The notes: generated by a model from the sequence alone, not told the origin. A stretch of DNA of 64,000 nucleotides from Hyphomicrobiaceae bacterium (GCA_965222775.1 OZ244971.1:1309165-1373164); one strand, 5' to 3'; shown: positions 3,918-40,893, counted from the first letter of the stretch. Numbers and translations are program-made.

Positions 3918-4298
3918 CCTATTAGGACCGGGGCGGACAGGACACTCTATGCGTTTTCCAGTTTAGATGAGACCAATATATGCCTCTTTTTGTGAAACCA
4001 AGACTATTTGGTGAAAAAGGGCAAATGGCGGTGAACATTAACTCGAGTTCGAAAGGGTCTGTTGGGGGAGCGGCTCAAGGGTGTGGATCTTTGGCTTCAG
4101 TCTCGGATAACGACTTTATCATTGGTATTCGGGGCTTGTCGTAATTGCGCGAAGCACGCATAAAGGCCGAGCGTATTTTGACATTGTTAACGGATACGTG
4201 CGTCGCGCTGCAAGATGATCGATTTTTAGAGAGAGCTCGTCATCTTGCCATGTGAGGAAATAAGCTTAGCCACCTCTTTTCTGAAAAAGAAGTAAGAT

Positions 4299-5012: not shown

Positions 5013-5050
5013 TTCAGGTGCGAACTTAAGGCCTCCAATTTTGTGAGGGC

Positions 5051-7683: not shown

Positions 7684-7754
7684 GTCTGCGTTATCCGATT
7701 GCGGCATTCTCGACGATAGACATTCCGTTCAGTCCCAACTATTCAACTTAAGCA

Positions 7755-8336: not shown

Positions 8337-8427
8337 ATGCTCTCTTGTAAGTGGAGTGTTGGTGTTGGGCATTCGATCACATCTAGATACCGGTTCAGAA
8401 GCATACCAGTTGGGTGCGGCTGCACTC

Positions 8428-8901
8428 ATGTTGTCGATCGCCGTCATCTTAGGTGCGCTGGCCTTTGAGCATATTGGCGGGCTCATTCCGTGCCCGCTCT
8501 GCCTGCAACAGCGTTATGCCTACTATGCGGGGATCCCGCTCATCTTCGGAGCGCTCATATTGGTCAGTGCTGGGAACGGGCGAGCGGCTGGCGTGATCTT
8601 TTTTCTTGTAGCGCTTGTGTTTGCTGCGAATGCGGCGCTCGGCGCTTATCATGCAGGTGTAGAATGGGACTATTGGCCCGGACCTCAGTCCTGTGCGGGA
8701 ACCCAAGACTTGGCGACGTCTACGGATGATCTGGTTTCTAAACTTGGTGAGACAACGATCGTGCGGTGCGATGAGGTCGCCTGGAGCTTTTTGGGTCTGT
8801 CTCTGGCGGGCTGGAATGTCGTCGTTTCGCTGTTGGTCTTTTTGATGATGCTTCGCGCAGCGTTTACCGCCCATAATCCCGTCTTGAAAAAGTCGGTTTG
8901 A
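8428..8901 (+). CDS. dsbB: Disulfide bond formation protein B (DsbB family)
   Basis: Four predicted TM helices and the periplasmic-loop Cys pair CPLCLQQRYAYY. The ATG at 8428 is chosen, but an upstream TTG/GTG start (about 8353-8362) would give a more typical N-terminus. Confidence 0.7.
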   Translation: MLSIAVILGALAFEHIGGLIPCPLCLQQRYAYYAGIPLIFGALILVSAGNGRAAGVIFFLVALVFAANAALGAYHAGVEWDYWPGPQSCAGTQDLATSTDDLVSKLGETTIVRCDEVAWSFLGLSLAGWNVVVSLLVFLMMLRAAFTAHNPVLKKSV

Positions 8902-9768
8902 GAACAACGGGATAGCGACGCGCAGCATGCGTCGCAGTTGGTCTTTTTCCACACCAATGTCGTGCTTGCAGCATCGGTCAATCAAAATTCCCCGGGTTAG
9001 CCAGATTGCGGACTTTTTGTTGCCTCGATGTCACGGTTAATTCGTCATGTTCGTGGAACACAAGGCGAACGTTTGGTTTGGATGAGGGAATTGCGGAATG
9101 GTTGTGCGTGCGTTCGGGTCCGCAGGTTGTGAACCTCCAACCCAAGTGTTGTTTCGACACCGGGTTGCTCGCGTTGAAGAGCCAACAGGTACGTCGTCAG
9201 CAAAGTGTTCTGCAGGAAGTACGTTGTCGCGTGCAGATCAAGAATTGCGTTCCAGTCCAAGTTTAGCGTCCGTATTGCGTGCCCTTCGGTTTCGTGAGTT
9301 GCGTAGAGTTTCGTTTGCGTTTTCCCCGTTACCAAAAGAAGCACTGAAGCCCGTGCTTCTCGACAAAAGACGGGCCGCTCTGCGTAATAAGTTTCAGCGT
9401 TGGTTTGAGCGGCTCGTCAGTACCGATAAAGAATTTCGTTGTTTTGAGTCCGTTAGTGGTTCGGTGTCTAAAAAGACGTCTCACTCAGGTGTTGTTAGCA
9501 AATTGCATAAGCGTATCGGGTCATCGTCGGCACAGTTGGGCTCGGATGACTAGAGTTTAGAGTTTTGTGGGTGCAAGTAGACCCTCATTCGAGTTGGCAA
9601 GTGCGTTCAGTGAAGCAATCAACAGCTCAAGACGGCGTCGTATGACCAGTTTAGCGTTTCGATGCCATTAAGGCTGAATGTGCTTGCCTCTTCTTCAAGT
9701 TTCAAATGCGTTTGTCTGTGCGGGCGTACACAAGGTTGTCCGTGTGCCATCGCAACCAGGAGGCAAAA

Positions 9769-9984
9769 ATGGCAGGCACTCAAATGAATCCCGTCCAGTG
9801 GCATCAGGCGCAAGACTATGCGCGCCAATATTGTGGGCGGGTCTTTTGTGAGGGCGGTTCCCCGGAAGATGCTCTTGAGGCGTTTGGATTGACGTCTGAG
9901 GGCGCCCAAGCGGCTGATTGGAGTGACGCGGTATCTTTGATTGCGGGTGCGTTGTGCCAACAGCCATCGCGGCGTGCTGCGTAA
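9769..9984 (+). CDS. Hypothetical small protein (71 aa)
   Basis: ATG preceded by a strong AGGAGG Shine-Dalgarno (ccaggaggcaaaaATGgcaggc). No recognisable domain. Lies in a 1.1-kb stretch with no other convincing gene. Confidence 0.25.
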   Translation: MAGTQMNPVQWHQAQDYARQYCGRVFCEGGSPEDALEAFGLTSEGAQAADWSDAVSLIAGALCQQPSRRAA

Positions 9985-10074
9985 GGGTTGATCCCGTCGC
10001 GCTGCTACCTAAACCGAGCTTGCGCGACGTAACCAACTTTTTTGCAGGCTGCTCTCGAAGTTCTGTGGCTCGGG

Positions 10075-10635
10075 CTACGGTTCGAGTTCCGTATCCCAAT
10101 AAAGATAATCGAGCCAGCTTTCGTGGAGGTAGTTTGGAGGAAACAGCCGCCCGTTGCGGTGCAGTTCAAACACCGTTGGCCGATACGGCTCTTGATCCGG
10201 AAACATGTTGACTTCGTTGGGCATGGCACCGCCTTTTTCCAAATTGCACGGTGCGCATGCGGTAACGACGTTGTCCCAACGCGTTTGGCCGCCTTGTGAT
10301 CGAGGGATGAGATGATCAAAGGTCAAGTCGTCTTTTGAACCGCAATACTGACACGTGAAGCGGTCTCGCAAAAAGACATTAAATCGGGTGAAGGCTGGAT
10401 AAAGGGCGGGCTTCACGTAGGTCTTGAGTGAGACCACGCTCGGTAAACGCATTTCAAAATTTGGGCTGCGCGCAAAACGGTCGTACTCGGACACGATGTT
10501 TACGCGATCGAGGAACACGGCTTTTACCGCGTCTTGCCAGCACCAAAGCGACAATGGATAGTAGCTTAGGGGCCGGAAATCCGCGTTGAGCACCAGGGCC
10601 GGATGGGCATCCGGTATGGTAGCATGAGCATTCAC
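10075..10635 (-). CDS. HNH endonuclease family protein
   Basis: 186 aa with an HNH/zinc-finger motif (CQYCGSKDDLTFDHLIPRSQGG...NVVTACAPCN). Confidence 0.75.
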   Translation of the reverse strand: MNAHATIPDAHPALVLNADFRPLSYYPLSLWCWQDAVKAVFLDRVNIVSEYDRFARSPNFEMRLPSVVSLKTYVKPALYPAFTRFNVFLRDRFTCQYCGSKDDLTFDHLIPRSQGGQTRWDNVVTACAPCNLEKGGAMPNEVNMFPDQEPYRPTVFELHRNGRLFPPNYLHESWLDYLYWDTELEP

Positions 10636-10845
10636 AGACCTGTTTCCTGTAGGTTTTCTCCCCGAATCACGGGTGCGCGCCCATTGGTGGCCGGATACTA
10701 GCCGCGCATGTCAACTCTGTGAAGCTCTAGCATTGTTATTGTTTGGCAGATTTGACACGGTTTTGATCTTTGGTTGATGTGCGGATTTTGGCGACCAGAG
10801 CAGGAGGTGTCCTCAGTTGTGGCGCTTTTGTGAGGGCCTTCAGAC

Positions 10846-11715
10846 ATGGCAATTTTTCGCTTCGCGCCCAGCCCAAACGGCTATTTGCACCTGGGGCATG
10901 CGTATTCGGCGCTTATTAGTTTCCGGATGGCGCAGCGGATGGGCGGTCAATTTCTTTTGAGAATTGAAGATATCGATAAGGGACGTTCGCGCGAGAAATT
11001 TGTTTCTGCCATATATCAGGATCTTGAGTGGCTCGGTTTGAGATGGCCAGAGCCCGTGTTGCGTCAATCAGAACATATTGCGGACTATGAACAGGTGGGA
11101 CGCCAGCTTGCAGAACTTGGGCTCACTTACCCCTGCTTTTGTACGCGTAAGGAAATCTCAGCGGCGACGGCGCTATCTAGCGGGTTAGATCCTGATGGCA
11201 TGCCGATTTATGCTGGCCGTTGCCGAGGCCTTTCAAAAACAGAGGCTGACAAGCTTAAGGAGGACGGACGTTCGTTCTGTATGCGGCTCAACATGGAACG
11301 GGCGCGCGATCACGCGGTCGGTGTTTTTGGGAGCGACCATCTTTTTTTTTGTGAACTTGATGCGCAGGGTCGCACGCAAGACGTTTTGATTGATCCAATG
11401 CGCTGGGGTGATGTTGTCGTGCAGCGCAAGGATGTTCGGACCAGTTATCATTTGTCTGTTGTTATTGATGATGCGCGCCAAGGTGTGAGCCATGTGGTTC
11501 GTGGTCGAGACCTCTATGAGGCGACAAGCATCCATCGACTCTTGCAACTCATACTTTACATTCAGTCGCCGATTTATCACCATCATGATCTTGTGCTGGA
11601 TCAATCCGGTGCCAAACTTTCAAAAAGCAATCATGCGACGAGTATTCGGAGCTTAAGAGAGAGAGGCTGGTCGCGGGCGGATGTGTTGGACCGGATCGGG
11701 CTTGAGCCTGACTAA
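10846..11715 (+). CDS. gluQ: Glutamyl-Q tRNA(Asp) synthetase (GluQRS, truncated GluRS paralog)
   Basis: 289 aa with the class-I HIGH-like FAPSPNGYLHLGHAYSA motif and a KLSKS motif near the C-terminus. The length fits GluQRS rather than full GluRS. Confidence 0.8.
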   Translation: MAIFRFAPSPNGYLHLGHAYSALISFRMAQRMGGQFLLRIEDIDKGRSREKFVSAIYQDLEWLGLRWPEPVLRQSEHIADYEQVGRQLAELGLTYPCFCTRKEISAATALSSGLDPDGMPIYAGRCRGLSKTEADKLKEDGRSFCMRLNMERARDHAVGVFGSDHLFFCELDAQGRTQDVLIDPMRWGDVVVQRKDVRTSYHLSVVIDDARQGVSHVVRGRDLYEATSIHRLLQLILYIQSPIYHHHDLVLDQSGAKLSKSNHATSIRSLRERGWSRADVLDRIGLEPD

Positions 11716-11818
11716 GATTTAATGAAACCACTGGCGTTTGGGGTGGTGGTGTCGGCGATGGGACCACATATTTTTTCGATGGGCCGTATTTTTTGGATTT
11801 GAATGTCCGGGATTGGAG

Positions 11819-12454
11819 ATGACACGTTTGGACTTCATGCGTTTTCGTACAGTTATTCTGGGCGCTATTTTGGGATCGATCCTAATTGTAGTGCCGGCCT
11901 TTGGTGCACATGCTGTTGAAACCCAATCTGGAACTAGTTTTGGCGAACGACTGGTGACGGCGGCGCGGGACCAGACGGGCTTTCTTGTCATTTATGATCC
12001 AACGTATCGAAAGCTCGACTACCCCATGGGTGATGTTCCCTGGTATTATGGTGTTTGCACAGATGTTGTCGTTCGGGCGTACCGGCAACTTGGCATTGAC
12101 CTGCAAGTTCTTATTTATCAGTCGGGCGTTGGAAGTGGCGACAAAAACATTGACCATCGTCGGGTCAATGTGATGCGCAAGTTTTTTGCGCGAAAAGGGC
12201 GGTCGCTGCCGATCAGCAAAGATCCGAAAGATTACAAACCGGGTGATCTTGTTTCTTATTACGTGCCGGAAGGAACTTTTTCAAAAACGCATATTGCAAT
12301 TGTCTCTGATCGCATGGGGCTTTCAGGGGCGCCCCAGATCATTCACAATCGTGGGCTGGGTGTTTTGGAAGAAGACTGGCTATTTGCTTCCAAAATTACA
12401 GGGCATTATCGATTTGAAACGACACCAAACATAAAAGGTTGGAAAGGCAACTAG
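11819..12454 (+). CDS. DUF1287-family secreted protein
   Basis: N-terminal signal/TM segment, then the conserved DUF1287 core (YDPTYRKLDYPMGDVPWYYGVCTDVVVRAYRQLGIDLQ...). GGAG RBS before the ATG at 11819. Confidence 0.65.
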   Translation: MTRLDFMRFRTVILGAILGSILIVVPAFGAHAVETQSGTSFGERLVTAARDQTGFLVIYDPTYRKLDYPMGDVPWYYGVCTDVVVRAYRQLGIDLQVLIYQSGVGSGDKNIDHRRVNVMRKFFARKGRSLPISKDPKDYKPGDLVSYYVPEGTFSKTHIAIVSDRMGLSGAPQIIHNRGLGVLEEDWLFASKITGHYRFETTPNIKGWKGN

Positions 12455-12698
12455 CTTAAAGAAGAATTGTACTGTCAATTAAAATGCAAAAACAGTTTTT
12501 AAGGTTTATTAGAGAAATTGAAGCGCTTTGAGCCCGTATCATACTTTTTATTAACTGGATTGCGGAATTCTGTTATTGTGGAAATTGGGCTATTGAATCG
12601 GTTTTTTCTATTTTTTGCATTTGCGAAAAATAAGGCTCATTGAAAAAACGGTCTGAAACCGAAACTGGCCTGATCGGAAACTCAACGGTTGGTGTGCC

Positions 12699-13292
12699 GT
12701 GCCTCAAGTTTCGGAATATGTATCTTATTGGGAAATGGTTGCCCTGGCGACGATCGTTGCCGGGCTTTATTTGTTTGTTGTGAAGTTGAGGCTCGTTGCG
12801 GCGGCTGAATTTTGTTTTCGCCGGATTTATTGGGTTTGGTCTTCGTTCCGCAGGTTCTCATTTAATGCAGACGGCCTGGTTTCCTTTCCGCATTCGCTGG
12901 ATTTGAAAGCGCCAATTCTTGCCGATAATGAAAATTTCCGGAAAACGGGCTCTGCAAAAGAAAAATCTGAGAATGCACCTGCATCTGAGACCGTTTCCAC
13001 TATTGGGTGTGAGCGGCTGACCCGGGAAGATCAGTGGAACCGGATTTCCATTTTCCTATCTTGCTCTGTTGAAAGCGCGCGGACGGCAGGCGAGATGCAC
13101 ACGTCGGCTGCCCGTCAGCTGGATGCTGTCGATTATGAATATCTAAAAATGATCGATGAGCTGGGGGCTTTGATGCCTGAAGTGGCTATGGCCCGCGTTG
13201 CTGCTTCACATGCGCAACGTTCTAAGTCGGTTAAAGATCAAATCGGGAAACCGGCGCGCGCCAAAGTGGCGCCTTCCAGCATGGCTGCTTAG
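12699..13292 (+). CDS. Hypothetical membrane-anchored protein
   Basis: 197-aa ORF with one N-terminal TM helix and no recognisable domain. It is preceded by a markedly AT-rich 250-bp region (12455-12700). Codon usage was not evaluated. Confidence 0.35.
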   Translation: MPQVSEYVSYWEMVALATIVAGLYLFVVKLRLVAAAEFCFRRIYWVWSSFRRFSFNADGLVSFPHSLDLKAPILADNENFRKTGSAKEKSENAPASETVSTIGCERLTREDQWNRISIFLSCSVESARTAGEMHTSAARQLDAVDYEYLKMIDELGALMPEVAMARVAASHAQRSKSVKDQIGKPARAKVAPSSMAA

Positions 13293-29812: not shown

Positions 29813-30059
29813 AGGACTCCCTTTCCAATTTGAAGTCGATCTTCATTTGATCAAAACAGTAGAGATCTGTGGTAAATATCTATTTGATGAACATGGTAAC
29901 GATCGTATTTGCGGGAGGCTCAAAATGAACGAATTCAGGTTTTGAATGTAAGTTAGCGATATTTTTAGTAATGGTCGCAATGCTCACGTGAAGCGTTAGA
30001 ATTTGATGCAAAGGTTGCCATGTGTTGACATCACAGCACGAAATACTGGAGGAAGTTTC

Positions 30060-30752
30060 ATGAGCGAGCCACTCATTTCGCGGATCAACCGCTTGATCTC
30101 AGGTGCAGTCTACGGTCAGGTTGAAGCCCTGGAATCGGCGATGGCTGAAACCACCATGCGCGAAGCGATCCGAGAAGTTGAGCGCACGACAGAGGAAGTT
30201 CGCGATCAATTGTTCAATTCTCGTCGCGAGCAGCAAGTGGCGGCCCGCCGAATAATTCAGACGCAAGAGAAACTGGCGCAGCTAGCAGACAAGGTGGAAG
30301 CCGCGCTTAAGGTCGACCGCGATGATCTCGCCGAAGCGGTCGTTAATCGTCAGCTTGATCTTGAAGCTCAAATCCCGATCCTGGAAAAAACACGCGATGC
30401 TGCAGGCGAGCGAGGAGCTGAACTTAACGGCTACATTACCGCATTGAACGGGCGCAAATCTGAAATGGAGGAAGAGCTAAAGGCCTTTATCCAAGCTCAG
30501 AAGGAACTTTCAAATGTGGCTGTTGACGGTGATCTTGGCGGCGAGACCTGTGGTCTGCAAAAACGTGCCGAGAAAGCCGAGAAAGCGTTCAGCCGCGTTG
30601 TGGAAAATGCAACTGGTGTTACCGGCATGACCCGATCGGACCGCGATACCATGTCAAAGTTGATCGAACTCGAATCTGTCCAGCGCAAAGAAAAGGTCGC
30701 AGAGCGTATGAAGGCCTACAAAGAGAAACGAGGACAAAGCGCCTCTGCGTAA
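30060..30752 (+). CDS. pspA: PspA/IM30-family (phage shock protein A-like) protein
   Basis: ~230-aa coiled-coil protein (MSEPLISRINRLISGAVYGQVEALESA...) with PspA-like heptad pattern. GGAGGA RBS before the ATG at 30060. Divergent from lemA. Confidence 0.7.
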   Translation: MSEPLISRINRLISGAVYGQVEALESAMAETTMREAIREVERTTEEVRDQLFNSRREQQVAARRIIQTQEKLAQLADKVEAALKVDRDDLAEAVVNRQLDLEAQIPILEKTRDAAGERGAELNGYITALNGRKSEMEEELKAFIQAQKELSNVAVDGDLGGETCGLQKRAEKAEKAFSRVVENATGVTGMTRSDRDTMSKLIELESVQRKEKVAERMKAYKEKRGQSASA

Positions 30753-30900: not shown

Positions 30901-30972
30901 GAGGGCTATAGCTCAGAGGTAGAGCGGCCGGGAACCCGGCAGGACGGAGGTTCGAATCCTTCTAGCTTCACC
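30901..30972 (+). pseudogene. tRNA-Ala-like element lacking a functional anticodon loop (tRNA pseudogene or tRNA-like structured RNA)
   Basis: AGGGCTATAGCTCAGAGGTAGAGCG...GGAGGTTCGAATCCTTCTAGCTTCACCA has an Ala-type acceptor (G3:U70, G2:U71), a canonical D-arm and T-arm (GGAGG/TTCGAAT/CCTTC) and an encoded CCA. The anticodon arm is only GCCGG-GAAC-CCGGC (4-nt loop) and position 1 is A opposite C72. Confidence 0.5.
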
Positions 30973-31053
30973 AAAGCTCAAAGGCTGAGCACAGGGCTGA
31001 TAATCCTGGGGACGTTAAGTCCGTCGTGGGTTCGATTCCCACTGGTGCCTTCC
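30973..31053 (+). other. Second tRNA-like fragment: perfect T-arm plus a 3' acceptor-like strand without a cis 5' acceptor partner
   Basis: GTGGG-TTCGATT-CCCAC T-arm followed by TGGTGCCTTCCA. The upstream portion has D-arm-like GCTCAAAGGCTGAGC but no foldable anticodon arm or complementary 5' acceptor strand. Confidence 0.35.
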
Positions 31054-31421: not shown

Positions 31422-32579
31422 ATGGCTGTCCTTGGCGTGTTTCGCGTAACTGTCAAAGATGATGAACGCGCTTTTCTGATGCGTGGTGGCCGGTTTGTGC
31501 GTTTGCTTGGTCCAGGTCGACATGTGTTTTTTGATGTCACGGGCCAGTACACGGCGGACGTTGTCAAAGTTCTGCGTTCGGAGATTCCGGCAGACCGTGC
31601 ACTGATGTTTACAAAGCTGTCGCCTGACTTGGCTGATGAAAACTTTGAGGTCGTTCAAGCGGGCGCCAACGAGGTTGGCATCGTCTCGTTTGACGGCGAG
31701 CCGAAGCATCTTGTGTTGCCGAACACCACGCGCGCATTTTGGAAGGCGGTGACGGATGTCGGCGTAGATAAAATTGACACGTCGGCTGATCTGCGGGTTG
31801 CCAAGCGCCATCTGGACAAAATTGACGTGGCGCGGGCATCGGTCGTGGTGCAAGAGGTTGTTGAGCCGCATGAAGCTGGTCTGTTGATCGTTGACGGCGA
31901 GATGGTCGAGCGTTTGAAGCCTGGTCGGCATGCGTTCTGGTCGGTCGCGCGGACGGTCAAGATCATCAAACTGGATCTGCGTCCGACGCCGTTGGAGGTG
32001 ACGGCGCAGGAAATCATGACCAAAGACCGGGTTGGCATTCGCGTGACGCTGACGGCGTTTACGAAGATTGTTGATCCGGAGAAGGTCGTGATGGCGGCTG
32101 ATGATGTGTCGAACACGATCTACCGTCTTATTCAGTTTGCGATTCGTGAGGCTGTGGCGACGCGCACGCTCGATGAGATTTTGGCGGCGCGCGATGCGAT
32201 CGACAACGAAGTGCGTGCGTTTGTTTCGCAACGGGCAGAAAAGCTTGGCGTCGAAGTGGGTGAGATTGGCATTAAGGATGTCATTTTGCCGGGCGATGTG
32301 CGTGAGCTTTTGAACAAGGTTGTTGAAGCTGAGCGCGTAGCCAAGGCGAACCTCATTCGACGTCAGGAAGAGACGGCGGCGACGCGGTCGCTTCTCAACA
32401 CGTCGAAGCTGATGACCGACAACCCGCTGCTCATGCGTTTGAAGGAACTTGAGGCGCTGGAGCGGCTGGTTGAAAAAGTTGGCCGGATCGATCTGCATGC
32501 TGGTGAGGGCGGCGGCCTTGAGACGTTGTTGCGCAAGCTTTACTCGCTGACGCCTGCGAAGGAGGATGAGGAGAAGTAG
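31422..32579 (+). CDS. SPFH/band-7 (stomatin/prohibitin/flotillin-like) domain protein
   Basis: 385 aa. The central SPFH core (TKDRVGIRVTLTAFTKIVDPEKVVMAADDVSNTIYRLIQFAIREAVATRTLDEIL...) is followed by a coiled-coil C-terminus. Confidence 0.8.
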   Translation: MAVLGVFRVTVKDDERAFLMRGGRFVRLLGPGRHVFFDVTGQYTADVVKVLRSEIPADRALMFTKLSPDLADENFEVVQAGANEVGIVSFDGEPKHLVLPNTTRAFWKAVTDVGVDKIDTSADLRVAKRHLDKIDVARASVVVQEVVEPHEAGLLIVDGEMVERLKPGRHAFWSVARTVKIIKLDLRPTPLEVTAQEIMTKDRVGIRVTLTAFTKIVDPEKVVMAADDVSNTIYRLIQFAIREAVATRTLDEILAARDAIDNEVRAFVSQRAEKLGVEVGEIGIKDVILPGDVRELLNKVVEAERVAKANLIRRQEETAATRSLLNTSKLMTDNPLLMRLKELEALERLVEKVGRIDLHAGEGGGLETLLRKLYSLTPAKEDEEK

Positions 32580-32649
32580 GTGGTTTTTTTGCGCCGACGC
32601 CAACGGCTCCGCCTAGTTGATCTTGTTCATGGCTGTTCCTCGCTACGCG

Positions 32650-32840
32650 AGGGCCATGAACGCGCCGACTGGTACGCCTTCGGCTACACCAGCGGCGGGA
32701 GAGATACGGCGTGCCCGTTCTTGTTGCTGGCGGGCTATTCTGAACGCTTATTGCGTTTGGGCCCACGGGTCCGCTGATCGCGACGGCTTCGCCTACCGCA
32801 GCGGCGGGAGTTTTACGGTGTACGTTTTCTTTGTTGCTCA
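32650..32840. repeat. Pair of imperfect ~55-bp direct repeats in the convergent intergenic region between the SPFH and TIR genes
   Basis: gacTGgtACGcCTTCGgCTACaCCAGCGGCGGGAGagaTACGGcGT versus gcgACGgCTTCGcCTACcGCAGCGGCGGGAGtttTACGGtGT, about 107 bp apart. They fall in different reading frames, so the repeat is at nucleotide level and non-coding. Confidence 0.5.
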
Positions 32841-32893
32841 CGAGCTGTTCATTGCTTTGAGTCACAAGAAAGCTTATGCCCACTTTTGAAGTG

Positions 32894-34450
32894 TTAGTCA
32901 CGTTGCATATGAACGAGATTATGTTCCAAAGTAGTGTGATGAAATCGTGCAGCAAAATCCCATGGCTGGGGAATGCTCTTGCGCCCCAAAATGCGTCGAC
33001 GGGAAGGTTTGGGTATAACAAAGATTTCGGGTGGCCTGAAATTTTCACCGACCTTACGATCGATTGCGCGTTTATATTCCTTTTTGACCCAACTAGATTT
33101 CTTTGCAGCATGACTCCAGATAACGCAGAATGTGTTGCAGCCGTCAATTTCATTTAACAGACGACTTTCCCAGTCCTCGCCAAAACGCAATCTCAAAACA
33201 TCAATAAATGGTTTAAGGCGGACGATTTCTAAGTCTTCGGCTAGATACTTTGCACGGAGCCAATCCCTTCGAGCATATGAAACGAATACTGGCTCGGCGC
33301 CTTGAACTGCCTGACAAACACTCGCAGAATGAGAAGCAAGTTGTGCCGTGCCACAATAAAAACTCAGAACAAGTCTGCCAATGTAGTGCTCGTTGATCCA
33401 TACACGGACGATCGGGTGGAGTTCGTTTACAGCCAGCTGTTGAGGAAAAGTGATTTTGAACTGGAGGGTCTCGGTCTCTCCGCTCCAGTCTACATATTGG
33501 ACAGGTTCGTCAGCAATGACCTCTTCGTCGCCATCAAATTGGACCGTGATTCGGTCTCCGCGGTGGACTTGCATTGCCATAAGTTGAGATGGCGTTGTAA
33601 ATTCGCTTTGTCCGAAGTTGCGCCGCAACCCCTCAAGTTGGTTGCGTTGATGTAGGCTTACTCGGAGTAGCGAGGTGGCGCCTGGGACGATAATCTGATT
33701 TGCGAAAGCGGAGCAATCGACGGTATCAATATCCTTCGAAGCGGAGTTCGGGTTTGTCGCGTTGTTCGCTTTGTTGGTCGCAAAGGTTGCAAGGCTCGGG
33801 GGAATACTTGATTTGGTCAATAGAAGAAGCTTCGATAGTGTGGACCATGCTTCATCACGGTAGATCCATGCAAGTGCGCCGAGAGCCAGCAACGATGTTG
33901 CAGCTCCTAACCAGAATCCTGTGTTGCGAGCAAGCCAAATATCATAGGTGGGTCGCCTCACGCCTTTCGGCGAAACGAAATATGATACTCCGAGGTCCCT
34001 TACTCGAGAGCTGACGGAAGTTGCAGTGCGGCGGTGGGATAGACTCACGTCAGTACGGATTTGCGGAGATATAGAAATTTTTGTAGTTACGAACTTGTCC
34101 TCCGCGTTACGGACAAGCTCTCGCAAAATCACCAACTCGTCGCTACTCGCAATCGATACGGTTGGGACGGTTGCTATGCTTTTGAGTTCAGGACTATCTC
34201 TAAACTCTTTTGTTGCCGCAATTATGGGCGAAACCCAGGGATGACGTTTTAGGTGGCTTAGAATTAATTGGACGCGTTTTTTAAGACCGAAATTGTTGGC
34301 GATGATAATGGCGAGTGCGAAATCTTCAAGATTGAGCCTTAGTGCGCGCTCTGAAGTGGTCGCCGTAACAGAGCGAAGGTCTGAGCCAAGAACTTCCTGA
34401 AGTTGTGTGAGAAATGTGCTTTCGTCGTCGCCGATTAACAGTATCTTCAT
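32894..34450 (-). CDS. Multidomain protein: N-terminal CheY/REC-like (probably pseudo-receiver) domain, one TM helix, a beta-rich middle region, and a C-terminal TIR domain
   Basis: C-terminus ...EPVFVSYARRDWLRAKYLAEDLEIVRLKPFIDVLRLRFGEDWESRLLNEIDGCNTFCVIWSHAAKKSSWVKKEYKRA matches the bacterial TIR pattern (betaA VFVSY, G-D-W, SxWxxxE with a conserved Glu). The N-terminus MKILLIGDDES...ALAIIIANN has a REC-like fold signature but no acceptor Asp at the end of beta3. The hydrophobic segment is FWLGAATSLLALGALAWIY. The locus looks more AT-rich than its flanks (inspection only, no count). Confidence 0.65.
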   Translation of the reverse strand: MKILLIGDDESTFLTQLQEVLGSDLRSVTATTSERALRLNLEDFALAIIIANNFGLKKRVQLILSHLKRHPWVSPIIAATKEFRDSPELKSIATVPTVSIASSDELVILRELVRNAEDKFVTTKISISPQIRTDVSLSHRRTATSVSSRVRDLGVSYFVSPKGVRRPTYDIWLARNTGFWLGAATSLLALGALAWIYRDEAWSTLSKLLLLTKSSIPPSLATFATNKANNATNPNSASKDIDTVDCSAFANQIIVPGATSLLRVSLHQRNQLEGLRRNFGQSEFTTPSQLMAMQVHRGDRITVQFDGDEEVIADEPVQYVDWSGETETLQFKITFPQQLAVNELHPIVRVWINEHYIGRLVLSFYCGTAQLASHSASVCQAVQGAEPVFVSYARRDWLRAKYLAEDLEIVRLKPFIDVLRLRFGEDWESRLLNEIDGCNTFCVIWSHAAKKSSWVKKEYKRAIDRKVGENFRPPEIFVIPKPSRRRILGRKSIPQPWDFAARFHHTTLEHNLVHMQRD

Positions 34451-34487
34451 CGCAAATTCAACCAGGCTGAGTGTGGTTTGGCCCTAA

Positions 34488-35489
34488 CTAACGCCATCGG
34501 CGAGATGCAAAGCCAACATAATCCGAAGGATCGGGAAGTGTAGGTTCTGTTGAGAGTGCTGCCCGAATAATGGCAGCGATGTCTGTCGTTGGGTCTGTTT
34601 CGGTTATCAAAGCGACAATCAATGGGCGCTGCCAGTCGGTGCCACGTTTATAGCAATTGGAACAGGGCGAAGAGAACTGGCCAAGACTGACGACCCATAT
34701 CGGTACCTGGCCTGTTCGTGGGGCCATCCAACTTGCTAGTTTATTAGCCCTAACTAGGGAACGCGGTAGCTCTTTTTCCGGGTCGCCTTCCGAGGAAGCG
34801 GCGCCAATCGACACAATTGTAGTACCGCGCAATAGCTTGTCTCGGATATGTGGTAGGAGTAGATCTCCTACGAAGGCATCTCCGGCGAGGCGTTTTGTTC
34901 CGCAGATGATCAATTCGGTGTCACCCTTCGGCCAATTGCAGGACTGGGAGAAGACCACGAATTCAACTGTATGCCGTTGCTGCGGTCCGGCTAACGTTCT
35001 CACAATGCTAACGTTGGGGCTCGGTTCCTTCGACGACGAGATCGATCCGTTTTGTATTATTGGCTGATCGGTGCTCGGTGTGGTTGACGTAGATTGTTTC
35101 GGCCAGTTGTTTGCAAATAGCGAGAAGACCACTAGCAAAGCTCCGGCAATGGCAAAGATGGCCGCTAAAACAAGTGCAACTGTAATGAAACAAGTTATTA
35201 GTGCAAAGACTGCATGAAGCACGTGAGCGGCGATTTTTCCAACATGCAAGGTGAGCAGCGCAATGGTTGAGAACACAAACGAAACGATTATCTTGATGAT
35301 CCGGGCTAGATTGCTGACGACAGTCCCAGCTAAATTGAGTGGAAGGGCGAGCCCTCTTAGGTAACCTGCCAAAAAAGCAGAGGTACGGTTGGTCGCACCG
35401 ACGACTCTTTGTCTTTGGGCGTTGATGTCTGGTGGTTCGAACACTGGACAAATCTTATTAGTATATGCGGTTGTATTCCGATAAAACAA
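34488..35489 (-). CDS. Membrane protein (2-3 N-terminal TM helices) with an uncharacterised C-terminal alpha/beta (Rossmann-like, possibly SLOG/DprA-LOG-like) domain. Putative partner of the TIR protein
   Basis: 333-aa ORF 37 bp upstream of the TIR gene on the same strand. Its TM block is IIKIIVSFVFSTIALLTLHVGKIAAHVLHAVFALITCFITVALVLAAIFAIAGALLVVF. The C-domain alternates hydrophobic beta-strands (EFVVFSQSC...ELIICGTKRLAGDAF...TIVSIGAASSEGD...IWVVSLGQF), consistent with a Rossmann-like fold. The family assignment is speculative. Confidence 0.5.
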   Translation of the reverse strand: MFYRNTTAYTNKICPVFEPPDINAQRQRVVGATNRTSAFLAGYLRGLALPLNLAGTVVSNLARIIKIIVSFVFSTIALLTLHVGKIAAHVLHAVFALITCFITVALVLAAIFAIAGALLVVFSLFANNWPKQSTSTTPSTDQPIIQNGSISSSKEPSPNVSIVRTLAGPQQRHTVEFVVFSQSCNWPKGDTELIICGTKRLAGDAFVGDLLLPHIRDKLLRGTTIVSIGAASSEGDPEKELPRSLVRANKLASWMAPRTGQVPIWVVSLGQFSSPCSNCYKRGTDWQRPLIVALITETDPTTDIAAIIRAALSTEPTLPDPSDYVGFASRRWR

Positions 35490-35814
35490 AGTTCGTGGTG
35501 TTTCAAAGCATCGTGAACTATGGGTATTCTAACTAGTGCAAATTTGATGCGCTCCCGTCAAGCTGGTTGGGATGGTACGTGCCACTTGACTCCCTGCGGA
35601 GCGGCGAATTGATGAGCTGACATCTTGCGCAAGCAAAACGGTGATCCGTTCAGTTCGTTTGTCCGATATTGTTTCGGGTTAAAAGCGAACATCTTGGATT
35701 GAGTACGGCATGTCCGATCAATAGATAACTTCAGACATTGACGATCAATGACACGCCGAATGAGAGGTGGTCGTTGGCGAAATTTGCTTGTTGAGTGCGG
35801 TGACCTGCGGTGGT

Positions 35815-36792
35815 TCACATCCCCCAAACAACGGCGCCGCCTAAAAGGCCGGCGCCGGCGGCGGTCATGAGGAGGGATTGGTCTTGTGATAGTTTGCCGG
35901 CGTCGTGGGCCAATGACAACGTCAATGGAATGGTTGCGGCGGAGCTGTTGCCGAACCGGGCCAGGCTTATGTGAACCTTGTCGTTAGGGACTTTGAGCTG
36001 GTCGCGCACGGCTTCGATCATTCGGGCGTTGGCTTGATGGGGAATGACGTGGTCGATGTCGTCGATCGATAGCTTTGATTGCAAGAGTGCGTTACTCGCG
36101 CAGTCGGTCATCAAGGTCACGGCTTTTTTGAAGACCGCCTGGCCGTCCTTGATCTCCATGAGTGTTTCAATGGGGTCTGTGATTTCAGAAAACGGTTTGG
36201 TGCTGCCGCCGCCAGGAATAGCGATGAGGTCGTAGGCTTCCCCGTCGGCACGGAGGTCCGACGCAATCAAGCCAGCGTTTTTTCTTTCAGTGGGCGCAAG
36301 GACTGCGGCGCCGGCGGCGTCGGCGAAAAGAATAGCGCTTGATCGGTCGGCCACATTCACGCGCCGTGACAAAATGTTGGCGGCGATGACAAGAACAGGT
36401 TTTCTTTGCGTGTGCACGAAAGCGTCGGCGAGTACCAGTGCGTAAAGAAAACCTGTGCAAGCGCCGGCAAGATCGATGCCACCGGCGTTTTGCAATCCAA
36501 GTTTATGGGCAACAAGCGGAGCTGACGGCGGCAAAAGTTGATCGGGTGTGCTGGTGGCCAATAGCAGAAGCGCGATATCGGATTTTGAGATGTTCGAATT
36601 TGACAGCGCCATGTTGCCGGCGGCGGCCGCCATGCCGCTTAGTGTGTCTTGGGGTTCAGCCCATCGGCGTTCGCGGATGCCCGTGCGTTGTTCGATCCAA
36701 CCTGGATCGAGGCCAAGTTTTTTTTCAAGCTCTTGATTGGTGACGACTCGATTTGGAACATGATGGCCGAGGCCAAGGATTTCGACGCTCAT
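35815..36792 (-). CDS. bioZ: FabH-like 3-ketoacyl-ACP synthase III at the end of the bio operon (BioZ-type pimeloyl-ACP synthesis enzyme)
   Basis: KAS III sequence (MSVEILGLGHHVPNRVVTNQELE...CTGFLYAL...HQANARMI...GNSSAATIP). Its ATG overlaps the bioA stop (ATGA). The FabH paralog terminating bioBFDA is the known alphaproteobacterial BioZ arrangement. Confidence 0.7.
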   Translation of the reverse strand: MSVEILGLGHHVPNRVVTNQELEKKLGLDPGWIEQRTGIRERRWAEPQDTLSGMAAAAGNMALSNSNISKSDIALLLLATSTPDQLLPPSAPLVAHKLGLQNAGGIDLAGACTGFLYALVLADAFVHTQRKPVLVIAANILSRRVNVADRSSAILFADAAGAAVLAPTERKNAGLIASDLRADGEAYDLIAIPGGGSTKPFSEITDPIETLMEIKDGQAVFKKAVTLMTDCASNALLQSKLSIDDIDHVIPHQANARMIEAVRDQLKVPNDKVHISLARFGNSSAATIPLTLSLAHDAGKLSQDQSLLMTAAGAGLLGGAVVWGM

Positions 36793-38075
36793 GTTCCTTG
36801 CTCGCTGGTTATTTTTTCTACGGTTTTTTCGATGGTGTCGTAGATTTTTTTGAGTTCCGGTTCTGTGATGCAATAGGGCGGCATGATGTAAATCGTGTTG
36901 CCAAGGGGGCGCAGCAGGACGCCCTCATCAAGGAACCTTTGATAAAGCTTCGGGCCGATGTTGGCCATATATCCTTGATCGTTTGTACACACGTCCAGGG
37001 CCGCAATTGTTCCCAATTGTCGTGGGTTTGAAACCTTGGAATGGGCTTTGAACCTTTGCAACTGACTTTGGTGGGTGTCACTAATTTTTTTGATCCGATC
37101 AAGCACGGGTTCGTTACGCCAGATTTCAAGATTGGCGCAGGCGGCCGCGCAGGCGATCGGGTTGGCTGTGTAAGAGCTGGAGTGGAAAAACATTTTGGTG
37201 CGGTCTTTTGAATAGTGTGCTGCGAAGATTTCTTCTGAGCAAAGTGTTGCCGCTAAGGGCAAAGCGCCACCGGTTATGCCTTTTGCGATACACAAAATGT
37301 CGGGTCTCACATTCGCTTGTTCGCAAGCGAACAGCGTACCAGTGCGGCCCCATCCGGTCATAACCTCATCGGCAATAAACAAGACGTTGTGTTTTTCGCA
37401 GATGCGCTTTATTTCGGACAGCACCTTCGGTTCATAGATCAGCATGCCGCCCGCGCCTAAAATGAGGGGTTCGACAATCAATGCAGCGGCGTTGTTTTGG
37501 CTGCAATGCTCCTCCAGCGCGTCAAGAGTTTGTTGTTCTAACCCTTGGTTGGGAAATGGAATTCGGGCCACGTCAAACAAAAGCGGTTCATAGGCCGCAT
37601 TAAAGAGACCGCGCGCGCCCGCAGACATGGTGCCCACGGTGTCCCCGTGATAAGCATGCTCCAGTGCAATGATGCGCGTGCGTTTTTCGCCGCGGTTGCG
37701 CCAGAACCCAAGCGCCATCTTGAGGGCAACTTCCACCGAAGTTGAGCCGGAGTCAGAATAAAAAGCCCGAGTGAGATTTGAGGGCGTGATGTCAATCAAA
37801 CCGTTGGCGAGGGTTTCGGCCGGCTCATGTGTGAAGCCAGCAAAAATGACCTGGTCCAGTTTTTCACTTTGATCGCGAATGGTGGCCATGATCTTTGGGT
37901 GGCGATGGCCGTGGGTTATCACCCACCACGATGAAATTGCATCAAGGATTTTTTTGCCATCTTGCGTTTCGAGCCATGCCCCGTCAGCGCTTCGGATTGG
38001 AACCATTATTGGTTGCAAGGCGTGCTGCGTGAAGGGATGCCAAACTGGAGAAGACTTGGCGTCGGGCATTAGCAA
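36789..38075 (-). CDS. bioA: Adenosylmethionine-8-amino-7-oxononanoate aminotransferase BioA
   Basis: 428-aa class-III aminotransferase with BioA-like sequence. Lies in the bio operon. Confidence 0.9.
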   Translation of the reverse strand: MLMPDAKSSPVWHPFTQHALQPIMVPIRSADGAWLETQDGKKILDAISSWWVITHGHRHPKIMATIRDQSEKLDQVIFAGFTHEPAETLANGLIDITPSNLTRAFYSDSGSTSVEVALKMALGFWRNRGEKRTRIIALEHAYHGDTVGTMSAGARGLFNAAYEPLLFDVARIPFPNQGLEQQTLDALEEHCSQNNAAALIVEPLILGAGGMLIYEPKVLSEIKRICEKHNVLFIADEVMTGWGRTGTLFACEQANVRPDILCIAKGITGGALPLAATLCSEEIFAAHYSKDRTKMFFHSSSYTANPIACAAACANLEIWRNEPVLDRIKKISDTHQSQLQRFKAHSKVSNPRQLGTIAALDVCTNDQGYMANIGPKLYQRFLDEGVLLRPLGNTIYIMPPYCITEPELKKIYDTIEKTVEKITSEQGT

Positions 38076-38701
38076 AAATCCTGGAGGTCAAAACTTGTTT
38101 GGAAGGCTTCGTGCAGCGATGTGCGGTTGAGGTCTTTTAGAACTGGCAGCCGACCAAGGATACGCGCTTTTGAAAACGCTTGAATTGTATCTTGTGTGTT
38201 TTTGTTTTCCTCGCCAATGAAGACGATGCCGCGGAGCGGTATCTTTCGGGCATTGAGGGCTTCGACGGACAAGAGTGTGTGGTTGATCGTGCCAAGGGCC
38301 GTGCGGGCGACCAAAATGACCGGAAGGTTCCATCGGGAGAAGAGCTCGATTTGTAATAGGTCTGGTGTGATAGGGACAAGGATGCCGCCGGCGCCCTCGA
38401 TAATGAGCGGCGCGTTGTGTGTTGTTGGCGGGTTCAGCCGGGATCGATCGATTGTGACACCGTCCAACTCGGCCGCACGATGTGGTGAGCAAGGTGTGTT
38501 TAATATATAGACTTCTGGTCTGATGTGGTCCTCAGGCAGTCCAGATAGTTGGGCCACAGTATAGCGATCTGTTTCGGGTTCTCGTCCGGCCTGGATCGGT
38601 TTCCAATAGGTTCCTTTAAGTGCACCTGCTAGTGCTGCGCAAAAGACCGTCTTGCCAACATCGGTATCGGTGCCGGTAACAATGAATCCTTTTGCCATCA
38701 A
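38069..38701 (-). CDS. bioD: Dethiobiotin synthetase BioD
   Basis: 210 aa with the P-loop GTDTDVGKT. Overlaps bioA and bioF. Confidence 0.85.
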   Translation of the reverse strand: MMAKGFIVTGTDTDVGKTVFCAALAGALKGTYWKPIQAGREPETDRYTVAQLSGLPEDHIRPEVYILNTPCSPHRAAELDGVTIDRSRLNPPTTHNAPLIIEGAGGILVPITPDLLQIELFSRWNLPVILVARTALGTINHTLLSVEALNARKIPLRGIVFIGEENKNTQDTIQAFSKARILGRLPVLKDLNRTSLHEAFQTSFDLQDFC

Positions 38702-39855
38702 GCAAGCCGTTCCAATTCATATGACAATGCGTCCATCATGTCTGTGATATCCGTTTCGCTAACATTAAGGGTGATCGCGAGGCGTAAACGGGCCGTGCCT
38801 TCAGGAACGGTTGGAGGGCGGATGGCGCGAACGTCAAACCCATGTGATTGTATGGCATGTGAAAGGGCAAGCGCGCGTTCGTCTGATCCAACAATTATGG
38901 GTTGAATTTGTGAGTTGGATGGTTTTATGGAGCCGAGTTTTTGAAGTTCGTTGATGGTGTGCGTTGTCAATTTTTTTAGGTCTGTTCGACGTGCGTCGCC
39001 TGTAGCGATAAGTTTTAGGCTGTGGCGCACAAGCGCTGCGATGAGCGGAGAGGGTGCGGTTGCATAAATCAGCGAACGACTTCGATTGATGAGAAAATCT
39101 TTGATAGTGCACGGTGCACAAACAAGTGCTCCCATCACACCTAATGCTTTGCCGCAAGTATGTAATGAGATGACGTTGTGGCGTCCTTCCAGGTGAGCAC
39201 TTAGCCCGCGGCCATTTGGGCCAAAGACGCCAGTGGCGTGGGCTTCATCCAATACGAGGACGGCGTCGTGGCGGTCGGCGACCGCTGCAAGATCATCTAA
39301 GGGCGCGCGATCACCGTCCATGCTGTAAAGCGTTTCAATGGCAATCCACGCTGTGCCTGTCCCGCCGCGCGTGCGCCATTGTGTGATTGCGTCGTCAAAC
39401 CCTTGAGCATTGTTGTGGGCGGCTGCAACGCATTCGGCTCTGCTCGCACGCATACCGTCATGGACGCTGGCGTGGATCAATTCGTCAAACACGATGAGAT
39501 CGCCGCGTTGTGGAAGGGTTGAAAAAATTGCGTGATTGGCCGTGAACCCACCGGCAAGAAACAGCGCAGTTTGGGCGCCAAAAAATTGCGCTGCCTCGTG
39601 TTCTAACTTTTGATGTTCTTCGTGATTGCCACGAAGGAGGCGGGAACCGGTGGCGCCAACAGGGATGCCGCGGGCAAGGGCTTCCGTTGTTGCTGTCTTG
39701 AACGTTGGGTCATTTGCAAGGCCGAGATAGTCGTTGGATGCAAAGTCAATTCCCGAACTTGGGGAAAGATTGCGCAACCTATTGCGACGCTTCAGCGCTT
39801 TGAGGCTTTTTTGATGGGCGTCAAAAGGGCCTTTAGATTTAGTCTCGGAGTGCAT
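38698..39855 (-). CDS. bioF: 8-amino-7-oxononanoate synthase BioF
   Basis: 385-aa PLP-dependent alpha-oxoamine synthase (NDYLGL..., ...HTCGKALG). Confidence 0.85.
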   Translation of the reverse strand: MHSETKSKGPFDAHQKSLKALKRRNRLRNLSPSSGIDFASNDYLGLANDPTFKTATTEALARGIPVGATGSRLLRGNHEEHQKLEHEAAQFFGAQTALFLAGGFTANHAIFSTLPQRGDLIVFDELIHASVHDGMRASRAECVAAAHNNAQGFDDAITQWRTRGGTGTAWIAIETLYSMDGDRAPLDDLAAVADRHDAVLVLDEAHATGVFGPNGRGLSAHLEGRHNVISLHTCGKALGVMGALVCAPCTIKDFLINRSRSLIYATAPSPLIAALVRHSLKLIATGDARRTDLKKLTTHTINELQKLGSIKPSNSQIQPIIVGSDERALALSHAIQSHGFDVRAIRPPTVPEGTARLRLAITLNVSETDITDMMDALSYELERLA

Positions 39856-39861
39856 CTTGGC

Positions 39862-40893
39862 TTACGCGCCCAGGGGTTCGAGTCCAAGTCGGTCGAACAG
39901 GCGTTCATCTTTATCTTGATCGGGGTTGTCAGCGGTGAGCAACGTATCGCCGATAAAGATTGAATTGGCACCTGCAAAAAAGCAAAGGGCTTGCATTTCG
40001 TCGGTCATGTCCGAGCGACCCGCAGAAAGGCGTACAAAAGACTGCGGCATCAAAATGCGGGCCAGTGCAATGGTTCTGACAAACTCGATTGGATCTAGTT
40101 TTGCGGTGTCTTCCAATGGTGTACCGTCGACGGGGATCAAAAGGTTTATGGGAACGCTTTGCGGGTGCTCGGGTAAGTTTGCCAACGTGACTAACATTTC
40201 AACGCGATCTGCGGGTTCTTCACCCAGACCTAGGATGCCACCGCAACAGACATTTATGCCAGCTTCGCGAACACGAGCCAAAGTGTCGAGCCGATCTTTG
40301 AACGTTCGGGTGGAAATGATGTTGGCGTAATGTCGTTCAGAGGTGTCAATGTTGTGATTGTAATAATCAAGGCCAGCGTCTTTCAGGCGCGTGACGTCCG
40401 TGTCGGAAAGCATGCCCAAGGTGGCACATGTTTCAAGCCCTAAGGCTTTGACGCCCGCAATCATGTCAACTACGGCGTCCATGTCGCGCGTTTTGGGGCT
40501 GCGCCAGGCGGCGCCAAGGCAATAGCGTGTGGCGCCTGATGCACGTGCTGTTTGTGCTTCTTCAATTACGTCGCTGACCTCCATGAGTTTGGAGGCTCCG
40601 ACATCCGTGTTGTATTTGGCCGATTGACTGCAGTAGCTGCAATCTTCTGGGCAGCCGCCTGTTTTGATATTCAAAAGGCGACTTTTTTGAATCTTATTGG
40701 GGTTGAAATTTTTGCGGTGGATGGTGTGGGCGCGAAAAAGCAAATCGTTAAACGGTTGGTCGTAGATGGCGCGCGCCTCGTCTGCTGTCCAGTTATGCCG
40801 GGTCGCGGATCCAACTTTATTTTCAACGGTGTTGCCCGTGTCGACGGACATTTGATCTTCATGTGCCAGGTCGGGTGCCAAAGGTTGGGACAT
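39862..40893 (-). CDS. bioB: Biotin synthase BioB
   Basis: Radical [14 protein letters not shown] motif and BioB-like sequence. First gene of the bioBFDAZ operon. Confidence 0.9.

Follow-up and report, generated by a model that had tools for sequence, protein, structure and literature searches.

The window analyzed here, a 64,000-nucleotide stretch of DNA from a Hyphomicrobiaceae bacterium (GCA_965222775.1 OZ244971.1:1309165-1373164), contains two adjacent minus-strand genes that encode a membrane protein, hereafter the partner, and a multidomain TIR protein (Table 1). We tentatively propose that the two proteins form a membrane-associated conflict module, in which the partner would sense a cue from the cell envelope and the TIR protein would act as the effector. 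An initial annotation of this DNA had described two open reading frames (ORFs) separated by 37 bp, and we recovered both of them with a gap of exactly that size. The longest partner ORF runs over 34488..35489(-), where an alternative TTG start at 35489 adds 15 non-conserved residues. The GTG at 35444 is the likelier start, as it gives a protein of the same length as database entry P0005 and an N-terminus that fits the orthologue P0006.

Table 1 Features of the two-gene locus and its surroundings (positions counted from the first nucleotide of the window)
Feature	Position	Strand	Remarks
Multidomain TIR protein gene	32894..34450	minus	ORF call; 518 aa
N-terminal flavodoxin-like/CheY-like domain (aa 1-125), without phospho-acceptor Asp (predicted)	34076..34450	minus	AlphaFold2 and Foldseek
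Gly/Ala/Leu-rich hydrophobic helix (aa 178-197)	33860..33919	minus	conserved; marginal transmembrane segment or membrane tether
Beta-rich middle domain (aa 240-380)	33311..33733	minus	strands predicted at low confidence; conserved in L088
TIR domain (aa 386-475)	33026..33295	minus	Pfam TIR_2
Intergenic spacer, partner gene/TIR gene	34451..34487	minus	37 bp exactly; operon-like
Partner gene	34488..35444	minus	318 aa from GTG at 35444
Membrane region of the partner, polytopic with 2-4 hydrophobic helices (aa about 22-113)	35106..35381	minus	hydropathy
Partner C-terminal domain, ~165 aa, unannotated family	34491..34997	minus	translation checked
Spacer, FabH-like gene/partner gene	35445..35814	minus	~370 bp; promoter for the pair presumed
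bioB-bioF-bioD-bioA operon ending in FabH-like (KAS III) gene	35815-40893	minus	
SPFH/Band-7 gene	31422..32579	plus	convergent with TIR gene
PspA/IM30-like gene	30003-30752	plus	28.5 bits, under the 33.9-bit cut-off
Two head-to-tail tRNA-like elements, each with terminal CCA	30902-30970 and 30971-31045	plus	Rfam tRNA, 48.7 and 36.9 bits

The C-terminal part of the 518-aa protein matched Pfam TIR_2 (PF13676) over residues 388-475, with E=4.8e-13 and 50.1 bits against a cut-off of 28, and the motifs VFVSYARRD, FGEDW and IWSHAAKKSSWVKKEY are all present in it. E458, encoded at 33077-33079, is invariant among three orthologues. A profile of these three sequences was aligned with the plant TIRs RUN1, RPV1 and L6. 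SSWVKKE is matched there to SRWCLDE, so that S452, W454 and E458 fall on S94, W96 and E100 of RUN1, although each PDB alignment taken singly is weak (E about 0.7-0.9). The catalytic Glu of RUN1 is E100, and NADase activity is impaired by the substitutions S94A, W96A and E100A (10.1101/2021.10.02.462850). Thus, the earlier reading of this region as a C-terminal TIR domain with a catalytic Glu was borne out, and the domain, which keeps the Ser, Trp and Glu of the NAD site, looks catalytically competent by sequence. It is followed by a conserved C-terminal tail. PADLOC and NCBIfam added only weak matches restricted to the TIR part (SAVED-TIR, ThsB and ThcB4). The ThcB4 model of Thoeris type III gave 27 bits against a cut-off of 220 bits, and ThsB_TIR gave 14.7 bits against 21.2 (PADLOC ThsB, E=0.005), short of a family-level match to ThsB. 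The AlphaFold2 model of the protein had an overall predicted local distance difference test (pLDDT) score of 42.8 and stayed under 50 across residues 358-518, as only three sequences were available for the alignment.

The sole usable part of the models is residues 1-120 of the TIR protein, predicted with a pLDDT of 60-80 and a beta-alpha-beta pattern. Foldseek searches with this domain returned the FleQ domain of FlrA as the best match, followed by dozens of receivers (E about 1e-3 to 1e-2, TMt 0.6-0.7). By manual alignment, made by eye, the acceptor position after the third strand is occupied by Ala in the window protein and by Val in both orthologues. We therefore regard the N-terminal domain, with medium confidence, as a predicted CheY-like (beta-alpha)5 pseudo-receiver. 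The assignment holds at the level of the fold, because sequence methods show nothing: the 518-aa protein had no Pfam Response_reg match at E<=1, and hhalign gave the domain a probability below 1% against CheY. Consequently, the CheY-like N-terminus lacking its Asp that had first been noted here survives as a fold prediction with Ala or Val at the acceptor position, but not as a similarity in sequence. A degenerate TIR domain was also considered for this region and rejected (hhalign probability 0.1%).

The helix that follows, at residues 178-197, had been annotated as one transmembrane helix. It is indeed conserved, but only marginally hydrophobic: on the Kyte-Doolittle scale it peaks at 1.62 in the window protein and does not reach 1.5 in the other two orthologues, the Hessa sums of the three come to +1.0, +2.5 and >3 kcal/mol, against +2.7 in the related protein of locus L088 (described below), and one orthologue has a Glu inside it. 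With such marginal hydrophobicity, the helix may instead be a non-spanning membrane tether; were it a true single span, the TIR or else the receiver-like domain would lie outside the cytoplasm. The beta-rich middle domain, described from the start as belonging to no assigned family, retained that status, as it had no match in Pfam, NCBIfam or the PDB profile search. All Cys residues of the protein are C-terminal to the helix, and C246 and C366, at the ends of the beta-rich domain, are the only ones kept in 4/4 orthologues.

The partner had no Pfam, NCBIfam or PADLOC match. Its AlphaFold2 model (pLDDT 48.5, from a two-sequence alignment) showed the membrane region as one long helix, and Foldseek found no match to this model at E<=0.001. 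The C-terminal domain carries the motifs FxhhVxSxxCxW, VSIGAASxEG(4)E..R...RA, LGQF..C..C...T.WQRP and LP.P..Y. A HMMER search of 1.84 billion cluster representatives recovered 163 proteins at E<=1e-3, 72 of them at <=1e-10, and nearly all of the 163 align to this domain. At 50% identity the family thus comprises 163 clusters or more. The motifs shared across the family are FDhhVL..W..GS, hIAVGxASxEG-x4-E..RA..RA..A.W, LNLGQY..C..CE..TSWQRPhI and EAL.dA....NLPSP..YS.F. A typical member has 260-280 aa; its tail, rich in Arg, Lys and Trp, leads into a single hydrophobic segment rich in Ala and Val, after which comes the domain, a layout that we take to resemble MotB. The window partner belongs to a subfamily with four conserved Cys in the C-terminal domain (hereafter the 4-Cys subfamily). 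A homologue search with a subfamily alignment returned 4 proteins only.

The initial annotation had seen a Rossmann-like nucleotide-binding fold in this domain, and we found nothing in favor of it. The SLOG, Macro and SIR2 models of Pfam, NCBIfam and PADLOC matched neither the partner nor its family, and there was likewise no Rossmann evidence. No Pfam family recurred at E<=10 across 84 family members; on 10 members NCBIfam recognized fused PufC and caspase domains and nothing in the common C-terminal domain; and the family profile matched only spurious designed repeat proteins among PDB sequences (E about 1). Kinship of the domain with TIR was rejected as well (hhalign probability 0.1%).

An index of 5.8 billion proteins yielded two or three close relatives for each of the two proteins, and these were always paired. 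The full-length orthologues of the TIR protein are P0002 (60% identity) and P0003 (48%), and the orthologues of the partner are P0006 (52%), a partial gene in locus L007 (58%) and the distant gene at 136-969 of locus L088 (28%). Locus L001 (16.7 kb) encodes a 314-aa partner and a 516-aa TIR protein separated by 33 bp; L007 (2.6 kb) encodes a partial partner and a 519-aa TIR protein, 27 bp apart; and L088, a 2.75-kb metagenome locus found by scan, encodes proteins of 277 and 577 aa with a gap of 11 bp. Whether the two genes recur as neighbors had been proposed as a check on the pair, and they do: the order partner-then-TIR, on the same strand and with gaps of 11-37 bp, is found in four loci from unrelated DNA sources, namely the window, L001, L007 and L088. 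The 577-aa protein of L088 aligns with residues 173-508 of the window protein, a stretch that runs from the helix through the beta-rich domain to the TIR (BLASTP E=5e-34), and scores 92.7 bits against TIR_2; its N-terminal domain is a second TIR_2 in place of the pseudo-receiver. The guanine-cytosine (GC) content of the loci is 52% for the window, 57% for L007, 60% for L001 and 63% for L088, and in both the window and L001 the pair lies 2.7 GC points under its surroundings. No relatives were found in viral contigs.

The genomic context differs between loci, with housekeeping neighbors in the window versus a TIR-rich island around the pair in L001. This island (1-13092) contains a TIR-NB-ARC protein, a tandem-TIR protein of 249 aa, a TIR-FGE-sulfatase, a patatin and a TIR-WD40 protein of 1396 aa. 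The patatin gene is directly downstream of the pair and matches the PADLOC 'Effector' phospholipase models with E=6e-36; we take it to be CBASS-type. A 228-aa protein of no known kind overlaps the patatin stop. Of the four loci, the window and L001 are long enough for such a comparison. For the wider family, a scan of species-representative genomes gave 135 relatives of the partner domain, of which the best 80 loci were examined; the best 80 of the 135 come nearly all from Hyphomicrobium or Hyphomicrobiaceae. The core gene order in Hyphomicrobiaceae is prs, L25, pth (peptidyl-tRNA hydrolase), X, ychF, where X encodes a protein of ~240-305 aa with the partner-type domain (for example L087 9794-10522 and L028 9602-10519).

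Several family members carry the domain in fused form. In P0153 a TIR_2 domain, in P0098 a caspase and in P0116 a CHAT domain is followed by a transmembrane segment and then by the partner-type domain; what changes among these fusions is the killer domain, whereas the partner-type domain is common to all three. In P0064, the photosynthetic reaction-centre cytochrome PufC, which is periplasmic, is directly fused to the domain (NCBIfam 2e-134), and P0047, P0066 and P0072 have signal-peptide-like N-termini. The latter three proteins also show a Cys/Gly-rich motif, C.GCGC.GG.G[YF], between N-terminus and domain. Among single-segment members, the density of Lys plus Arg is higher before the hydrophobic segment than after it in 38/57, a moderate positive-inside bias. 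Because of the PufC fusion, the signal-peptide-like N-termini and this bias, we judge that in most family members the partner-type domain probably lies outside the cytoplasm. For the partner of the window the same location depends on an odd number of membrane spans.

The spacing of the family motifs, G-x2-S-x2-G-x4-E-x2-R-A-x2-R-A with a later Q-R-P-h-x-h, mirrors that of OmpA/Pal, G-H-T-D-x2-G-x4-N-x2-L-S-x2-R-A ... N-R-R-V-x-h. We compared the family with three templates, namely Pal of E. coli, Pal of H. influenzae and the C-terminal domain of E. coli OmpA, which match Pfam OmpA at E 2e-19 to 5e-25. With an alignment of 100 family sequences, hhalign gave a probability of 52.6% (P=1.4e-4) over 74 columns in the expected register. 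The probability was 66% for the 4-Cys subfamily alone, with P between 1.4e-4 and 5.5e-5 over this range of 52.6-66%, and 28.5% for the remaining family alone. The alignment scored 29.7, whereas 200 column-shuffled templates gave 10.7+/-2.1 (maximum 18.1), about 9 standard deviations lower, and the reversed template gave 14.0; control comparisons of the family with the TIR protein, and of the TIR protein with OmpA, stayed under 0.5%. In OmpA_C domains an Asp and an Arg bind diaminopimelate, and in the hhalign alignment the diaminopimelate-type Arg is retained as the invariant R232. These comparisons suggest that the partner-type domain may have a remote OmpA-like core.

The pair lies downstream of the bio operon and the FabH-like gene and on the same strand. 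The bioBFDA genes with the FabH-like gene resemble the BioZ-type biotin operons of Alphaproteobacteria, the one taxonomic hint in the sequence, which would point to an alphaproteobacterium. A consensus sigma-70 site was sought in the 35445..35814 spacer and none was found, and an upstream regulatory sequence common to the window and L001 was discarded as a candidate, since comparison of the spacers showed no conservation. A PhoX gene lies further out, as does the PspA-like gene; the PspA/IM30-like and SPFH/Band-7 genes near the pair are both of membrane-stress type.

The GC content of the pair is 49.2% vs 51.9% for the whole window, which places it among the lowest 1.3% of 2.6-kb windows, and GC at third codon positions is 47-50% in the two genes vs 50-64% in the adjacent ones. 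The AT-richness first reported for the locus is therefore real but modest. The locus had also been placed just after two tRNA-like scars. Both elements exist, but ~1.85 kb away, beyond the SPFH gene and on its PspA-like side; ARAGORN calls the first one only, with an aberrant 2-nt 'anticodon', and no anticodon is assignable. The elements could be pseudo-tRNAs or else small RNAs resembling tRNAs. Att-like direct repeats bracketing the pair were sought and none were found. With the tRNA-like elements past the SPFH gene and no flanking att-like repeat, we rejected the reading of the pair as a tRNA-bounded island, and of the two arguments originally given for horizontal acquisition the one from tRNA scars is weak and the one from GC content holds, for a modest shift. 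The intergenic region 32580-32893, between the convergent SPFH and TIR genes, is GC-rich (57%), folds unusually well (z=-4.3) and contains tandem 60-nt direct repeats (32663-32722 and 32772-32831; 72% identity, 109-nt spacing), whose core is found nowhere else within the window.

Conflict systems that combine a constant non-catalytic domain with a variable killer domain have been described as bearing a sensor/effector signature, and receiver domains act in them without histidine kinases (Kaur et al. 2021, PMC8195603). Because different killer domains are attached to one constant partner-type domain, and because L001 has the pair in the company of conflict genes, the partner domain would be the sensor or anchor and the TIR protein the output. 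We hypothesize that the partner senses an envelope cue and that the tethered TIR protein is the effector of a horizontally acquired, membrane-associated two-component conflict module; we give this reading a probability of about 0.42. Our model suggests that the first gene encodes a polytopic inner-membrane protein whose divergent, possibly OmpA-like and probably extracytoplasmic C-terminal domain reports an envelope or periplasmic cue, such as the state of the cell wall or a component of an invader. The second gene would encode the executioner, a TIR with an intact NAD-site Ser, Trp and Glu, held at the membrane by its small-residue-rich helix, which could pack against the transmembrane helices of the partner. 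The beta-rich and non-phosphorylatable receiver-like domains that flank the helix would probably control oligomerization. Once activated, TIR domains would associate with one another and cleave NAD+, leading to depletion or to an ADP-ribose (ADPR)-derived product, and growth of the cell would stop. In this scheme, the sequences show the genes and their domains, the residues of the catalytic site, the conservation of the pair, and the partner-domain family with its fusions; the direction of signaling, the topology, the ligand, the NADase activity and any role in immunity are what we infer. That the pair matches no described system, as was first claimed, agrees with the searches, since PADLOC and NCBIfam match the generic TIR part only and nothing in the partner; from its sequence the pair is probably a new variant of the bacterial TIR conflict/defense theme that belongs to no named system.

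Several observations weigh against this model. Both AlphaFold2 models are poor (pLDDT 42.8 and 48.5), and they lend no structural support to the TIR or the partner fold. The OmpA link is under the usual confidence threshold, Pfam OmpA (PF00691) matched neither the partner nor the 84 family members at E<=10, and the position of the peptidoglycan-binding Asp is held by an invariant Ser, S217. Topology cuts several ways: an even number of spans in the partner would put its domain in the cytoplasm; a true single-span helix in the TIR protein, with the N-terminus inside, would put the TIR in the periplasm, away from NAD+; and if the helix does not span, its coupling to a periplasmic partner domain is hard to explain. 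The pair is known from four loci only, and its neighbors in the window are housekeeping or stress genes (bioBFDA with the FabH-like gene, SPFH, PspA-like, PhoX), among which there is neither a defense island nor a mobile-element gene. In addition, a TIR-like ORF lies within 10 kb in 0/80 of the best loci of the partner-type domain. Because of this, TIR association is confined to the 4-Cys sub-branch (window, L001, L007 and L088) and to the fused proteins. Since the family consists mostly of core genes that lack a neighboring TIR, the partner-type domain is not in itself an immune domain.

The relation between the two proteins could also be of the Thoeris kind. Here the TIR protein would sense infection and make an ADPR-derived messenger, and the partner would be the effector that binds this signal and disrupts the membrane through its transmembrane helices. 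Thoeris is defined by a two-gene operon in which a TIR is joined by a transmembrane protein that carries a soluble domain. Yirmiya et al. 2025 (10.64898/2025.12.03.692087) report 29 putative Thoeris configurations, many of which include transmembrane effectors or domains whose function is not known. Moreover, the TIR catalytic residues are kept, the best, if weak, TIR matches are the ThsB and Thoeris type III ThcB4 models, the invariant Arg and Glu of the partner domain could bind a phosphorylated ligand, and four spans in the partner would make its domain cytoplasmic. However, the TIR scores are far under family membership (27 vs 220 bits for ThcB4), and the partner matches no Macro, SLOG, SIR2, DUF2270 or DUF6650 model and no PADLOC effector model. 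Members of its family are fused to the periplasmic PufC or have signal-peptide-like N-termini, and most of them have no TIR partner. The fusion of TIR, caspase and CHAT to the same domain across a transmembrane segment is unlike the relation of a signal producer to its receptor. With the domain constant and the killer variable, a role as sensor or anchor is a better fit than that of an effector activated by a signal. The initial annotation had cast the partner in this Thoeris mould, as a Rossmann-like ligand sensor; the remote OmpA-like similarity of its unannotated family, the hints of an extracytoplasmic location, the mostly TIR-less core genes and the fusion pattern all speak against that proposal. 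A Thoeris-like arrangement would be viable if the partner domain is cytoplasmic and nucleotide-binding, and we consider it unlikely.

Quite improbable, in our view, is a non-immune function in the envelope, in which the pair would be an accessory version of a housekeeping membrane or periplasm module, for example a cell-wall-anchored complex, with the TIR and receiver-like domains serving to scaffold or regulate it. Such a function would fit the partner-domain family being a core syntenic gene in Hyphomicrobiaceae (135 relatives, best 80 loci), the remote OmpA/Pal-like core in proteins that mostly consist of tail, one hydrophobic segment and domain, the housekeeping and membrane-stress neighbors in the window (PspA-like, SPFH and the bio operon), and the lack of matches in viral contigs. 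However, the pair is very rare and patchy, with three full-length homologues in the 5.8-billion-protein search and one metagenome locus; its contexts differ and its GC content is shifted. The TIR-paired or TIR-fused forms keep company with caspase, CHAT, NB-ARC and patatin, which is typical of conflict systems, and the invariant catalytic Glu argues against a TIR that is purely a scaffold.

An immunity gene that precedes its toxin is atypical of toxin-immunity loci. Brucella BtpA and BtpB are reported to be translocated bacterial TIR effectors with NADase activity (PMC7188309), a precedent for a very improbable third view, in which the TIR protein would be an exported toxin, its helix a signal-anchor with the beta-rich and TIR domains outside the cytoplasm and acting on other cells or a host after release, and the partner a chaperone, immunity factor or export helper: a folded N-terminal domain without signal peptide followed by one hydrophobic helix does predict N-in/C-out, all Cys are C-terminal to the helix with C246 and C366 bracketing the beta-rich domain as a disulfide would, and the partner subfamily has four conserved Cys in a probably periplasmic domain, but the helix is only marginally hydrophobic with a Glu within it in one orthologue, the L088 orthologue would hold one TIR on each side of the membrane, no secretion-system genes are found among the window neighbors, and the putative 'immunity' gene is upstream of the toxin, not downstream.

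The reading that we prefer, of an envelope-sensing partner and a tethered TIR effector, can be taken further. The partner domain could define a widespread new family of extracytoplasmic, OmpA-derived envelope sensors coupled to interchangeable death effectors (TIR, caspase or CHAT), which would serve as an 'outside-in' suicide or immune receptor. The coupling would be made across the membrane, in one polypeptide or as a two-gene unit, and would monitor the cell wall or periplasm and not cytoplasmic phage components. We hold this extension to be rather unlikely. In a stranger variant of it, the catalytic TIR domain itself may be periplasmic.

Compared with known systems, the partner family shares with OmpA_C-like domains (Pal, the OmpA C-terminal domain, MotB-type) the spacing G-x2-[D/S]-x2-G-x4-[N/E]-x2-..-x2-R-A and a later [N/Q]-R-[R/P]-h-x-h, with hhalign probabilities of 53-66%. 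It differs from them by an invariant Ser for the Asp and an invariant Glu for the Asn, by an extra N-terminal beta-strand region and a CxxC, and by having no Pfam OmpA match. The N-terminal domain of the TIR protein resembles pseudo-receivers of the FleQ type in its predicted (beta-alpha)5 fold, in its best match (FlrA FleQ) and in lacking the acceptor Asp, but it has no Response_reg sequence similarity, and a TIR replaces it in L088.

The conflict systems of multicellular bacteria described by Kaur et al. 2021 (PMC8195603) likewise place swappable TIR, caspase and CHAT killers on a constant non-catalytic domain and use a receiver-like domain without a histidine kinase, and the L001 context of TIR-NB-ARC, TIR-FGS, TIR-WD40 and patatin is of the same kind. 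In contrast, the window pair itself has no STAND/NTPase switch or effector-associated adaptor domain, and its constant domain is membrane-anchored and probably periplasmic; the words 'OmpA', 'periplasm' and 'peptidoglycan' do not occur in the text of PMC8195603.

With the Thoeris systems that use membrane effectors (type II, ThsB with TM-Macro; type V, ThsB with DUF2270/ThsF; type VI, DUF6650/ThsG) the pair has in common a two-gene operon of a TIR with a catalytic Glu and a transmembrane protein with a soluble domain, the adjacency of the TIR gene to an effector-type gene, here kept in four loci, and a probably accessory, horizontally mobile character. It differs in its partner domain, which belongs to none of the Macro, SLOG, DUF2270 and DUF6650 families, matches no SLOG-SIR2, caspase-like or PADLOC model, and is probably extracytoplasmic. 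The TIR protein of the window is also membrane-tethered and multidomain, with a pseudo-receiver and a beta-rich domain, the partner gene comes first in the pair, and the pair is known from its genes alone. To our knowledge, sensing and signaling are cytoplasmic in all characterized TIR two-gene systems. These systems are a fast-growing class of bacterial immunity, for which 29 Thoeris configurations were proposed in 2025. If the partner domain is instead a Thoeris-type effector, it would represent a new effector family. If it senses the envelope, this small pair of 2.6 kb would add a transmembrane input route to TIR- or caspase-based cell suicide, and would assign a function to an orphan domain that is conserved in Alphaproteobacteria and occurs in 160 or more protein clusters.

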